This document shows positions 6,328 through 9,683 of a stretch of 9,683 nt of DNA, piece after piece. This stretch comes from a virus (Duplodnaviria; Heunggongvirae; Uroviricota; Caudoviricetes). Location of the stretch: the IMG/VR virus record IMGVR_UViG_2531839374_000010, positions 1 to 9,683 of that record; one strand, written 5' to 3'. The position numbers were made by a program, and so were the translations under genes. The number at the start of each line of letters is the position of its first letter. Position 1 is the first letter of the stretch. The notes below the pieces were generated by a model. The model searched no databases, had not been told where the DNA came from, and was given only the letters and a program-made list of their open reading frames with translations.

Positions 6328-6628
6328 TTTTATTTTTCCTACATTATGTTATATAATTGTTCATATCATACAATTGTTGAGTATAGATGTCTCGTTATTC
6401 ATCAACATTTACTCCTGTTAAATTAGGGGGAGTATGTATTAAAAATATTCATCTGGGTCGTCTAAATATTTTTGATAAACTAATAGCAATAACACTATCA
6501 GTATTGCCTGCCCTCACGTCGTTCTTGCTCTCGCGCGATTTTTAACTAAACACTAGCAGGATTTATCATGGTGCTACGCTACATTTACTTGTAGGGAGCT
6601 AAACAGATCATTGACGCTGAAAATATTC

Positions 6629-6644
6629 AAATTGTTAAAGAGCG
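6629..6644 (-). promoter_or_regulatory. boxA-type antitermination element (minus strand CGCTCTTTAACAATTT)
   Basis: Contains the lambdoid boxA core CGCTCTT(T)A and, as remembered, matches the E. coli rrn leader boxA GCTCTTTAACAATTT over 15 nt. It lies in the leader between the putative pL and the cargo ORF, on the transcribed strand. Confidence 0.5.
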
Positions 6645-6744
6645 AAGCGTCCTATGGGCGTTTTGTTGCTAACGAATCATCTTGGACTTCATATGCCCCA
6701 GGCGGCTACTTCGTGGGCATCCTGCCTGTTTGTTGTTTCGTTTT

Positions 6745-6794
6745 GGTACATTGTGTGTCCATGGGGTACATTGTGTGTCCATGGGGTACATTGT
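6745..6794. repeat. tandem direct repeat, 2.5 copies of the 20-bp unit GGTACATTGTGTGTCCATGG
   Basis: Perfect copies at 6745-6764 and 6765-6784, with a partial third at 6785-6794. Each unit carries the GGTACA half-site found in the cI/cro operators. Confidence 0.9.
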
Positions 6795-6797
6795 CAA
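6770..6797 (-). promoter_or_regulatory. candidate leftward early promoter (pL-like): -35 TTGACA (6797..6792), 16-nt spacer, -10 CACAAT (6775..6770), embedded in the tandem repeats
   Basis: Perfect consensus -35 read on the minus strand just downstream of the cI terminator, overlapped by operator-like repeats. The -10 is a 4/6 match. Confidence 0.35.
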
Positions 6798-6799
6798 GT

Positions 6800-6824
6800 A
6801 TAAAAAAACCTGCCGAAGCAGGTT
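6800..6824 (-). terminator. intrinsic terminator of the repressor gene (stem AACCTGC / GCAGGTT, UUCG tetraloop, U-tract)
   Basis: On the minus strand: AACCUGC-UUCG-GCAGGUU followed by UUUUUAUAC, starting 13 nt after the cI stop codon. Confidence 0.7.
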
Positions 6825-6836
6825 CATAAATATTGA

Positions 6837-7511
6837 TTAGGCCTTTATTTTGTATCTTCTTGGTTTTCCCGAGAAAATCACAGTGCCAATTATAGAGCAA
6901 TTACCGTTAATCTTAATGTAGGGCTCAGGCCAGTTTGGGTGTAATGCTTTGAGATAACGCTGTGTTCCATCTTCTATCAATCGCTTGAAGGTGGTTTCGC
7001 CTGTATCGTGCATCAACGCAATAACGTCGTCACCGTGGCAAGCAGGGACTTCAGGATCAACAAAAATCATGTCTCCCGGACGGTACTCATCAATCATTGA
7101 ATCACCAATCACCCGCAAGATATAAGTCATTTCGCCACAGGGTACAGGGCAGGGATAAGTTTCTGCTGTGCTCAAATCAACCTCAGAATAGCCAACTTCT
7201 TTCCATGCTCCGGCCTGTACCCATGATATGACAGGGACTAACGTTATTTGTTTGTTAGTGATTGAAACATCAGGTTTTTTTGTGATGTTCGTTGTCTGGT
7301 GTTCTTGATCGAGCCATCCGATAGGCAGGTCGAAACATTTTTCAATGTGTCGTGCCATGCTGTCACCGATATTTTTAGTAGCACCATCTCCCATAAACCT
7401 GCTGGTCTGGGTTGGCTCGCGATCAATCATAGTGGCAAAGGAAGAATTCCCGCCAACACCATCTCTCAGTTTTCTGGCGTTAGACCGCCGGATGTCATGG
7501 ATTGTTTTCAT
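6837..7511 (-). CDS. CI-like prophage repressor: N-terminal HTH plus C-terminal LexA-type S24 peptidase domain, 224 aa
   Basis: GDSM serine motif and downstream Lys (FKRL) in the C-terminal half; candidate Ala-Gly autocleavage site (…VQAGAW…, about residues 100-101). It is divergent from the cro-like gene across an operator region. Confidence 0.85.
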   Translation of the reverse strand: MKTIHDIRRSNARKLRDGVGGNSSFATMIDREPTQTSRFMGDGATKNIGDSMARHIEKCFDLPIGWLDQEHQTTNITKKPDVSITNKQITLVPVISWVQAGAWKEVGYSEVDLSTAETYPCPVPCGEMTYILRVIGDSMIDEYRPGDMIFVDPEVPACHGDDVIALMHDTGETTFKRLIEDGTQRYLKALHPNWPEPYIKINGNCSIIGTVIFSGKPRRYKIKA

Positions 7512-7526
7512 AACGAAATTAAAACC

Positions 7527-7595
7527 CTTGTACCGCTAAGGTACAAGTATCTTGAAGGTTCATTTCAATCATGTGATGTGTACACTGGAGGTACA
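7527..7595. promoter_or_regulatory. right operator region between cI and cro: O1 CTTGTACC-GCTAA-GGTACAAG (7527-7547) and O2 TGTACA-CTGGA-GGTACA (7579-7595)
   Basis: Two palindromes with the same TGTAC(C/A)-N5-GGTACA architecture in the 90-bp divergent intergenic region. O1 is perfect over 8-bp arms. Confidence 0.6.
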
Positions 7596-7601
7596 TATTG
7601 T

Positions 7602-7802
7602 ATGAAAGCGTATTGGGACTCTTTAACCAAAGAACAGCAGGGTGAGTTGGCCGGAAAAGTTGGCTCAACACAAGGCTACTTACGGCTGGTTTTCAATGGC
7701 TATAAAAAAGCCAGTTTTGTGCTGGCTAAAAAACTTGAGCAATGCACGTCAGGTGCAATTACGAAATCTGACTTAAGACCGGATATCTATCCGAAAGATT
7801 AG
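7602..7802 (+). CDS. Cro-like small HTH regulator (YdaS-family-like), 66 aa
   Basis: ATG at 7602 with GGAGGT 9 nt upstream. MKAYWDSLTKEQQGELAGKVGSTQGYLRLVFNGYKKASFVLAKKLEQCTSGAITKSDLRPDIYPKD; the C-terminal ...LRPDI motif is recalled from Rac prophage YdaS. The 167-aa track ORF 7299..7802 is an upstream over-extension. Confidence 0.75.
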   Translation: MKAYWDSLTKEQQGELAGKVGSTQGYLRLVFNGYKKASFVLAKKLEQCTSGAITKSDLRPDIYPKD

Positions 7803-7833
7803 CAGAACACTTTCAATTTTTAACCACAGAACG

Positions 7834-8403
7834 ATGAGGCTAATCGTGGGTAAGCATCACTGGAAAATAGAAAAACAGCCTGAGTGGTACGTGAAAGCTG
7901 TCAGAAAAACTATCGCAAAGTTGCCGGGTGGTTACGCTGAAGCGGCTGACTGGCTCGATGTAACAGAAAACGCTTTATTCAACCGCCTTCGTGCAGATGG
8001 CGATCAGATTTTCCCGCTGGGATGGGCAATGGTTTTACAGCGTGCTGGTGGCACTCACTTCATTGCTGATGCTGTGGCGCAGTCTGCAAATGGCGTCTTT
8101 GTGTCTCTTCCTGACATCGAGGATGTGGACAACGCCGATATTAACCAGCGTCTGCTGGAAGTCATTGAACAGATCGGCAGTTATTCAAAACAGATTCGTT
8201 CAGCAATCGAAGACGGTGTAGTGGAACCGCATGAGAAGACAGCAATTAACGACGAGCTGTATCTCTCAATTTCGAAGCTGCAGGAGCATGCAGCACTTGT
8301 CTACAAAATTTTTTGCATTTCAGAAAGTAATGACGCCCGCGAGTGTGCAGCTCCGGGCGTCGTGGCGTCGATTGCTTCTGGTTGTGGAGAAACTAACGCA
8401 TGA
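7834..8403 (+). CDS. prophage regulatory protein following cro (YdaT/CII-like, putative), 189 aa
   Basis: Third gene of the cI-cro-cII arrangement. The start is ambiguous (ATG 7834 with a weak ribosome-binding site, or GTG 7846 with GAGG 6 nt upstream). The functional call is positional and from a weak remembered resemblance. Confidence 0.5.
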   Translation: MRLIVGKHHWKIEKQPEWYVKAVRKTIAKLPGGYAEAADWLDVTENALFNRLRADGDQIFPLGWAMVLQRAGGTHFIADAVAQSANGVFVSLPDIEDVDNADINQRLLEVIEQIGSYSKQIRSAIEDGVVEPHEKTAINDELYLSISKLQEHAALVYKIFCISESNDARECAAPGVVASIASGCGETNA

Positions 8404-8442
8404 ACAGTTTAACAACACACTACCGTCGCTCGCAACTGATTG
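8400..8442 (+). pseudogene. 5' stub (14 codons, MNSLTTHYRRSQLI) of the next prophage gene, truncated by IS911
   Basis: ATG at 8400 overlaps the upstream stop (ATGA) and has GGAGA 9 nt upstream. The frame runs straight into the IS911 left end at 8443. Confidence 0.4.
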
Positions 8443-8514
8443 TGAAGTGGCACACTGAATTTGGCCACCTGAACAGAGGTGATATGCTCACCTCAGAACA
8501 ACACAGGTGCTCCA

Positions 8515-9683
<1,169 letters not shown>

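Follow-up and report, generated by a model that had tools for sequence, protein, structure and literature searches.

A consensus boxA of phi80-type nutL descent in the early-left leader of a defective prophage, with a candidate structured RNA upstream

Every textbook account of lambda-like phages includes boxA and nut sites. We analysed a boxA in a DNA stretch of 9,683 nucleotides (nt), positions 1 to 9,683 of IMG/VR virus record IMGVR_UViG_2531839374_000010 (hereafter the window), which covers the left-hand portion of a defective lambdoid prophage of the SfV/SfIV/e14/CPS-53 type at thrW, beside tRNA-Thr(CGU). The site lies in the leader transcribed from the predicted early-left promoter pL, and sequence comparison shows it to be an orphan, partly decayed nutL of the family carried by phi80, HK225 and Stx2a-converting phages. 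We propose that this boxA, set in a mosaic leader, may still load the host factors NusB and NusE without any phage N protein and so help early-left transcription to resist Rho, a reading to which we give a probability of about one half. The boxA itself is of the known nutL kind; what adds interest is the make-up of the leader, with its one-way antisense terminator and a structured RNA that is new, and the presence of a consensus boxA in prophages lacking a recognisable N. A first-pass annotation, made by a model from the sequence alone, had singled out the boxA; the structured RNA (here called PLE) directly upstream of it and the predicted opposite-strand action of the hairpin just 5' of it go beyond that annotation. 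On the minus strand, 5' to 3', the leader carries PLE, an A-tract with an antisense-only terminator hairpin, boxA, a spacer, a mutated boxB and a leader remnant:

6738..6665, minus strand: PLE, conserved structured RNA of ~70 nt, with closing helix P1, invariant core GGCAGGAyGCCCACGAAGUAG and hairpin P2
6648..6668, plus strand: stem-loop CGTCC-TAT-GGGCG plus TTTTGTTG, a predicted intrinsic terminator facing pL, against transcription converging on pL and cI
6644..6629, minus strand: boxA CGCTCTTTAACAATTT, identical to rrnB, fitting GYTCTTTAANA and aligned with the annotated phi80 nutL boxA
6599..6619, minus strand: conserved nutL spacer CAGCGTCAATGATCTGTTTAG of the phi80/Stx2a-phage family, aligned with phi80, HK225 and Stx2a phages; exact pattern in 96 viral contigs
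6579..6594, minus strand: degenerate boxB CAAGTAAATGTA, homologue of the phi80 'nutL core' CACGTAAACGTG (L428 1553-1564)
6490..6578, minus strand: diverged remnant, by local alignment, of the long non-coding leader found 3' of nutL in phages of the phi80 type

The boxA site and its nutL relatives

The first-pass annotation had matched the site to the rRNA-operon boxA, and the match proved exact when we read the rrnB leader (...GCGGCAC TGCTCTTTAACAATTTATCAG...) from the E. coli MG1655 genome: 15 consecutive nt, GCTCTTTAACAATTT, are identical (15/15) to the rrnB boxA (L004 367..381). An exact 15-mer match is expected by chance about 2e-5 times in 2 x 9.7 kb, and the site at 6644..6629 is the sole match to this 15-mer in the window at up to 2 mismatches. 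Its 11-nt functional stretch, GCTCTTTAACA at 6643..6633, fits GYTCTTTAANA, the consensus of BoxAs that function without N, in which C4A and C4T/T6C are loss-of-function changes (Baniulyte et al. 2017). The boxA is on the pL-transcribed strand, 126 nt downstream of the -10 hexamer of the predicted pL, and the first sense open reading frame (ORF; starting at 6327) follows 302 nt downstream, in agreement with the earlier estimates of about 125 and 300 nt. The minimum-energy fold of 6650..6560 pairs part of boxA, with an ensemble frequency of 0.013 and z = 0.03 against shuffles. Rfam searches at both the gathering threshold and a permissive E-value found nothing at boxA, the hairpin or PLE, and in relatives they matched only isrK, C4 and sRNA-Xcc1, elsewhere in the loci. 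No other boxA with 1 mismatch or fewer occurs in the window, where the visible pR operon ends at an insertion sequence (IS) at 8479. A boxA-like ACTCTTTAACCA with 2 mismatches is found at 7618-7629 (plus strand) in the first codons of cro, also in SfIV; since it is translated and off-consensus at G1, it is probably due to chance.

Despite the rrn identity, the motif, called rrn-type in the first-pass annotation, is no derivative of rrn and belongs to a known family of phage nutL sites. Searching phage genomes with window 6650..6540 returned phi80, HK225 and about 90 Stx2a-converting phages, matched over window 6643..6570. The phi80 match falls exactly under the annotated 'nutL boxA' and 'nutL core', with pL upstream and N ~290 nt downstream. 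The signature of the nutL family is YGCTCTTTAACAA, ~14 variable nt, CAGCGTCAATGAYCTGTTTAG, ~7 nt and a boxB, CACG-(U/A)AAA-CGUG; the spacer CAGCGTCAATGAYCTGTTTAG is matched exactly at window 6619..6599, and an intact phi80-type nutL is also present in a Kluyvera leader. The family consensus is GCTCTTTAAnAAT, and the boxA identity to rrnB at positions 14-15 is particular to the window lineage. Over window 6644..6487, 124 of 153 columns (81%) are identical to locus L387; the alignment to the phi80-type leader is unreliable beyond ~6490, 3' of which come unrelated AT-rich DNA and then a cargo gene at the position of phi80 N.

Since this region aligns with the phi80 nutL boxA and nutL core, the boxB-like hairpin that the first-pass annotation had pointed out at 6594..6579 is the positional homologue of a true boxB. 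It is degenerate, though: the window boxB, CAAG-UAAA-UGUA, carries three substitutions, with two of its four canonical pairs broken and one G.U, whereas all four pairs are kept in 10/10 other nutL members, in one of them by a compensatory G-C to A-U change (alignment A5). The fold CUACA-AGUAAA-UGUAG (-7.9 kcal/mol in its 35-nt context, z = -2.6 against shuffles) is an alternative register produced by these boxB substitutions.

In line with the first-pass annotation, which saw none between cI and the early genes, we found no N-like gene in the window by Pfam, PHROGs, tblastn (lambda N, phi80 N) or an arginine-rich-motif screen, N proteins being very diverse, and the same four approaches detected none in the complete SfIV genome. 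Because phi80 N is encoded ~290 nt downstream of nutL in the same operon, N was lost by replacement at this spot downstream of nutL, which cargo and AT-rich DNA now occupy; the suggestion that an antiterminator was lost with the missing arm of the prophage is thus not borne out. Could the site be an N-dependent nut site nonetheless, served by an unrecognised phage N-like protein using the altered hairpin or the PLE hairpin, or by N that a phi80- or Stx-type prophage in the same host provides in trans? The homology to a bona fide nutL, the stability of the window hairpin in its alternative register with the A-rich loop kept, the boxA followed by a lambda/P22-like boxB GCGCUGAAAAAGCGC in Xenorhabdus relatives and the ease with which N proteins evade homology searches all speak for it. 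We nevertheless hold it quite unlikely, as there is no ORF at the canonical position, no arginine-rich small ORF in the window or the SfIV early region and, in the whole of SfIV, neither another boxA (nutR-type) nor another PLE, and as the canonical boxB register is broken and most cassette-type leaders, described below, are without a hairpin after boxA.

Several observations on N and nut sites in relatives are of additional note. The Stx2a phage VT2phi_272 (L429 1501-2756) has an intact phi80-type nutL-like site followed by isrK (RF01394), a C4 antisense RNA (RF01695) and a rha/antirepressor gene, with no N ORF between the nutL-like site and the rha/antirepressor gene. Among 100 loci with the phi80-type nutL spacer, only 2 have a phi80-N-like ORF within 1.5 kb. 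In the Xenorhabdus prophages L199 and L203, the boxA GCTCTTTAACAG lies ~+100 after the PLE core, 4 nt ahead of the boxB GCGCUGAAAAAGCGC; in L199 an IS630-like transposase comes next, hiding any N.

Conservation of boxA and its possible use without N

To follow the boxA across phages, we gathered leaders solely by means of the RNA core upstream and used the hairpin as the anchor, so that boxA was not required. GYTCTTTAANA was present 3 nt after the hairpin in all 18 hairpin-anchored leaders. The information content was 2.0 bits at each fixed consensus position, 1.2 bits at the degenerate position (N10) and 0.5 bits at the base before G1, and it dropped to 0.2-0.5 bits a few bases past ...AAT. 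In 36 kb of unique leaders we counted 26 sense and 0 antisense occurrences of the consensus; leaders lacking the hairpin-boxA cassette had 9 sense and 0 antisense occurrences within 1.5 kb, with ~0.35 expected. A few of the latter prove to be the cassette again, placed after a longer leader; one, in Xenorhabdus, precedes the lambda/P22-like boxB, and another belongs to the intact Kluyvera nutL. The boxA was found across hundreds of E. coli genomes and viral contigs. The phi80 boxA, GCTTTTTAACAAC, is off-consensus at position 4, as would be expected for an N-dependent site, and the N-less lineages are on-consensus.

Taking the consensus match together with this position-wise conservation, the use of host NusB/NusE that the first-pass annotation had raised, next to the alternative of an antiterminator lost with the arm, is the part of that claim we retain as the best-supported reading of the sequence. 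BoxA on the nascent pL transcript would bind NusB-NusE (S10), since it perfectly matches the consensus under which the BoxAs of rrn, suhB and clustered regularly interspaced short palindromic repeats (CRISPR) leaders function independently of N. The bound NusB-NusE could then nucleate a complex of NusA, NusG and SuhB on RNA polymerase, and this Nus complex may shield transcription from Rho over the long untranslated or antisense early-left stretches towards yfdR-xis-int. A precedent is known: in the CRISPR leaders of Salmonella, a lone BoxA keeps Rho from terminating long RNA that is not translated (Stringer et al. 2020; PMC7665894). This applies to rrn leaders too. In the window, besides the 302 nt that precede the first sense ORF, a 420-nt untranslated gap lies between the cargo pseudogene and yfdR, and C-rich, G-poor stretches are found on the pL strand at 6163-6084 (inside the disrupted cargo gene) and 5723-5604 (inside the 420-nt gap). 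The boxA alone would not enable transcription to pass intrinsic terminators in the way that N does. A scan for sense-strand intrinsic terminators gave no more than weak hits in the window, SfV and SfIV pL operons, so there is no evidence that such read-through is needed.

The hairpin 5' of boxA is predicted to be a one-way terminator facing pL, because its stem is stable and followed by a U-tract on the plus strand only. In the window, the antisense fold has -14.8 kcal/mol (z -3.4), while the sense fold has -1.8 kcal/mol and is no better than shuffles; with relatives included, the ranges are -12 to -15.6 kcal/mol on the plus strand versus -1.8 to -7.5 kcal/mol on the pL strand. The asymmetry of the stem arises where a C.A mismatch on the pL strand becomes a U.G wobble on the opposite strand. 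The U-tract after the plus-strand stem is U6 in relatives and UUUUGUUG in the window, where the hairpin is also shortened by a 4-nt deletion, and the homologous SfIV hairpin was the top antisense-strand call of a terminator scan. A second plus-strand terminator-like hairpin facing pL is located at 5701-5723, within the 420-nt gap.

In relatives, boxA is preceded by the block AAAAAA-GCGCCC-loop-GGACGC-TT, which together with boxA makes up the cassette and occurs in at least 100 distinct contexts behind several upstream leader types. Homology between phages often stops directly past boxA, and most cassette-type leaders have no hairpin after it. The first downstream gene is antisense in 49/53 unique cassette-bearing loci versus 46/126 loci without the cassette, so that the pL RNA would be untranslated in those 49. 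The window lineage is exceptional, with a sense cargo gene, a hairpin shorter by 4 nt and a cross-over inside boxA into the phi80-type nutL. We also compared the presence of boxA with the length of untranslated RNA (median 262 vs 126 nt), and left this comparison unused as the difference is partly built in by the ~45-nt cassette itself.

This arrangement raises two further explanations of the site. One is that the conserved letters serve the opposite strand or the DNA and are no RNA signal on the pL strand: they could provide the antisense terminator with its A-rich 5' flank, supply the U-tract if the terminator is bidirectional, or form a joint at which modules recombine. The boxA does abut a hairpin that is strong as a terminator on the other strand only, and mosaic break-points fall at or right after boxA. 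Flanks and U-tracts would need no invariant G1, C2 and C4, though, the profile of conservation follows the NusB/E consensus down to the degenerate position, and phi80-type, Stx2a-type and Kluyvera leaders have the same boxA but not the hairpin, which makes this the least likely of the alternatives we considered. The other, hardly more credible to us, is repression as in suhB, in which the Nus complex would block translation of the next sense gene and promote Rho termination, attenuating the pL operon or its cargo. A BoxA up to ~100 nt from a start codon represses in suhB and in a ParE-like toxin gene of Citrobacter koseri (Baniulyte et al. 2017), and SfIV-type leaders have a sense ORF with a strong ribosome-binding site ~45 nt after boxA. 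In the window, by contrast, the first sense ORF is far beyond that distance, the next gene is antisense in most cassette loci, and attenuating a xis/int operon would be counter-productive on induction.

An explanation to be taken more seriously, although we still think it unlikely, is that the boxA is a non-functional relic of a phi80-type nutL, left intact through recency or by hitch-hiking with PLE or the antisense terminator. The three boxB substitutions that break the canonical stem fit this, as do the ~19% divergence of the leader remnant and the general decay, visible in the two IS elements, in the splitting of both the integrase and the cargo gene and in the shortened hairpin; in addition, syntenic relatives manage without boxA. 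On the other hand, boxA is invariant at all fixed positions across lineages whose hairpin loops and downstream flanks vary freely, its strict sense bias (26:0 and 9:0) argues for selection, and the same boxA recurs in the hundreds of genomes and contigs mentioned above.

Several points weigh against N-independent use of the boxA. The absence of N is a weak negative: N is too diverse to be excluded by homology, and PHROGs gives even phi80 N no antiterminator label. The conservation in related prophages that the first-pass annotation had proposed to check is broad and yet incomplete, as boxA is missing in the syntenic SfV, SfII, K-12 e14 and an O157 prophage, all of which retain the upstream RNA, and it is therefore dispensable in some genomes; literature searches for a boxA in SfV/e14-type phages found nothing. 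Its conservation elsewhere could partly reflect block inheritance and use as a recombination joint. A C>G (rut-like) profile is absent directly after boxA, the first 300 nt being AT-rich. When collapsed to cargo protein families, the link between cassette and antisense cargo, very strong if counted by locus, falls to a trend of 8:3 versus 30:36 (p = 0.11), so this association is suggestive only. Finally, since IS insertions, the split integrase and the split cargo gene show that the prophage has decayed, any present-day function of the boxA in the window prophage itself is probably moot.

PLE and the surrounding early-left region

PLE stands directly after cI and pL in every annotated phage examined, beginning ~12-15 nt past the predicted start site in relatives. 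A covariance model (R1) scores the window copy at 81.6 bits (E 3.6e-29); this copy is the only one in the window, the complete SfIV genome likewise has just one, and there is none in the fetched stretches of HK022 (genome 24500-36000) or lambda (pL to cro, 34900-38400). More than 200 loci match the 21-nt core, GGCAGGACGCCCACGAAGTAG, without a single difference; they come from genera including Escherichia, Citrobacter, Klebsiella, Enterobacter, Yersinia, Serratia, Xenorhabdus, Photorhabdus, Pantoea, Erwinia and Pectobacterium. Around this core the helices change in sequence and keep their pairing: variants of the closing helix include GCGAA/UUCGC, UCGAA/UUCGA, GUCAUC/GAUGAC and CCACC/GGUGG, and those of the hairpin CCUGG/CCAGG, CUACC/GGUAG and others. 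Computed on 58 non-redundant sequences, the two helices covary, with 91% of cells paired versus 63% when shuffled and 177 versus 57 double-sided changes, values that none of 500 shuffles reached; slid controls gave 21-42% pairing, and RNAalifold predicts the same two helices. With the loop-closing pair excluded, G.U outnumbers A.C by 13 to 3, which favours the pL strand as the one that folds. PLE has no Rfam match and its core was found in no searchable literature, and it appears to be a previously undescribed structured RNA.

PLE is so conserved at the start of the main early transcript that its partner is probably a host machine that is itself conserved. Its position resembles that of putL; since it coexists with intact nut sites in some phages, we consider a put-like role rather unlikely. 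Equally doubtful is a broader scheme in which PLE is a new put-like, cis-acting modifier of RNA polymerase that replaces N in many temperate phages of Enterobacterales, alone or with boxA, and in which the terminator-boxA cassette forms a two-way insulator. If this were so, the insulator would stop transcription of reverse-oriented cargo from entering pL and cI, and would let pL transcription cross the cargo untranslated. With a core invariant from Xenorhabdus to Escherichia, PLE is well placed as a candidate for a new kind of control over prophage induction that is based on RNA and would also affect expression of cargo, xis and int in pathogens.

Other leaders contribute further modules. A second conserved domain, TTAACGCGCAGCAGGT..AACGTTCCGCnnGCCnGGCGAyAAGGGCA, lies ~+55 to +115 after the PLE core in SPN3UB (L014), mEp237 (L015) and many viral contigs. 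It occurs in Gifsy-like and mEp237-like leaders and, for example in L235, L240 and L242, also without PLE, and for this reason the pL leaders look like mosaics of RNA modules. The lambda pL RNA (L230) starts AUCAGCAGGACGCAC... and shares GCAGGACGC with the PLE core (CAGGCAGGACGCCCAC); this shared stretch may be a vestige of PLE.

The genes around the leader place it in its prophage. On the minus strand the order is cI, terminator, pL with TGTACC repeats, leader, split cargo gene, yfdR, yfdS, a yfdT-like gene, an excisionase-like helix-turn-helix (HTH) gene and a frameshifted integrase. A 417-amino-acid ORF (window 1-1254, plus strand) 5' of tRNA-Thr(CGU) presumably corresponds to the proA-thrW attachment region of SfV-type phages. 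The remaining features are as follows:

6837..7511, minus strand: cI-type repressor, ymfK/cohE-like, LexA/S24 family (Pfam Peptidase_S24 8.9e-25; phrog_4 transcriptional repressor 1e-47)
6806..6825, minus strand: intrinsic terminator closing the cI transcript, GAACCTGCTTCGGCAGGTTT then TTTTATAC; an annotated terminator in SfV
6770..6797, minus strand: candidate pL promoter, predicted; TTGACA, 16 nt, CACAAT, consensus match 10/12
6745..6794, no strand: operator-like TGTACC repeats; perfect 20-bp tandem duplication, 2.5 copies (Tandem Repeats Finder: period 20, 100% matches)
5731..6327, minus strand: cargo gene (phrog_17948), broken into 6187-6327 and 5731-5931; sits where phi80 has N
4772-5308, minus strand: yfdR-type 5'-deoxynucleotidase (PHROG and Pfam matches)
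4419-4781, minus strand: DUF551/yfdS (PHROG and Pfam matches)
4264-4419, minus strand: yfdT-like ORF, cut by an IS3-family element (PHROG and Pfam matches)
3112-4267, plus strand: IS3-family insertion sequence truncating the yfdT-like gene (HTH_Tnp_1 and rve ORFs)
8479-9683, plus strand: IS3-family insertion sequence cutting the rightward operon after cro and the cII-like ymfL (HTH_Tnp_1 and rve ORFs)
2498-2932, minus strand: HTH_17 excisionase-like ORF
1459-2621, minus strand: integrase in two overlapping ORFs, catalytic domain 1459-2247 and N-terminal part 2163-2621

The cI-type repressor, whose homologues carry a ymfK or cI annotation in relatives, defines the immunity region upstream of pL. 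At the position of the candidate promoter, relatives have TTGACA-16-CATAAT (11/12 consensus), and in phi80 the annotated pL is in the equivalent place. The 20-bp duplication gives the window a third TGTACC repeat and a leader longer by 20 nt; by alignment, SfIV, PhiR29 and ECONIH4 are without it. The cargo gene has an intact 198-amino-acid homologue in E. coli ECONIH4 that matches phrog_17948 at 6e-95, and the 66-amino-acid piece in the window matches its C-terminus at 6.7e-20; neither Pfam nor PADLOC gave a match for the cargo genes, which were thus not recognised as known defence systems. The yfdR/yfdS/yfdT-like block (4264..5308), made up of downstream genes of the pL operon, is syntenic with SfIV, PhiR29 and CPS-53-type prophages. 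The overlap of the two integrase ORFs suggests a frameshift, and the two IS insertions fit the decay of a prophage whose host is Shigella or E. coli.

Comparison with known systems

The put sites of HK022 are the nearest parallel to PLE, in that both are structured RNAs of ~70 nt found right where the pL transcript begins, in lambdoid phages that lack a functional N. They differ since PLE is present as a single copy per genome with no putR analogue, has a closing helix that encloses two hairpins and co-occurs with intact nut sites in some phages. We also considered PLE as a homologue of put and rejected this, as neither nhmmer nor the covariance model gave any similarity in the fetched HK022 stretch. 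The mEpimmI 'Nus-dependent' phages were likewise set aside as an instance of the same system, because they use a classical N-like protein, Gp17, with boxA-boxB sites.

With lambda nutL the window shares the layout of cI, terminator, oL/pL, leader, boxA and boxB. The lambda boxA, CGCTCTTA, is off-consensus and N-dependent, however, its boxB follows after 8 nt, N is present and the right operon has a nutR. Much closer is the nutL of phi80, of HK225 and of Stx2a phages of the PA2/TL-2011c/P13374 type, which has the same location after pL and is homologous from boxA through CAGCGTCAATGAYCTGTTTAG to boxB and ~90 nt beyond. The contrast with phi80 lies in its intact boxB and its downstream N, against a broken boxB and no detected N in the window, in its boxA GCTTTTTAACAAC, which departs from the N-independent consensus that the window boxA fits, and in the PLE and antisense terminator that precede the boxA in the window.

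The rrn leader boxA, which works with the rRNA antitermination complex (NusB, NusE, NusA, NusG, SuhB and S4), shares the 15-nt identity, a hairpin just 5' of boxA (the rrn order being boxB, boxA) and, as far as the sequence suggests, no need for a phage protein. There is no homology outside boxA, the context in the window is a phage early operon, and the upstream hairpin in the window is weak on the sense strand and terminator-like on the other. The BoxAs of the CRISPR leader and of the suhB 5' untranslated region resemble the window in being a lone GYTCTTTAANA BoxA before long untranslated RNA, served there by host Nus factors only; the window boxA differs in its descent from a phage nut site, and by analogy its outcome could be protection or repression. 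A boxA on the N-independent consensus in hundreds of prophages without a recognisable N suggests that many temperate phages of E. coli, Shigella, Salmonella and their relatives carry out early-left transcription with host Nus factors only, which would parallel the rRNA operons and the CRISPR arrays.

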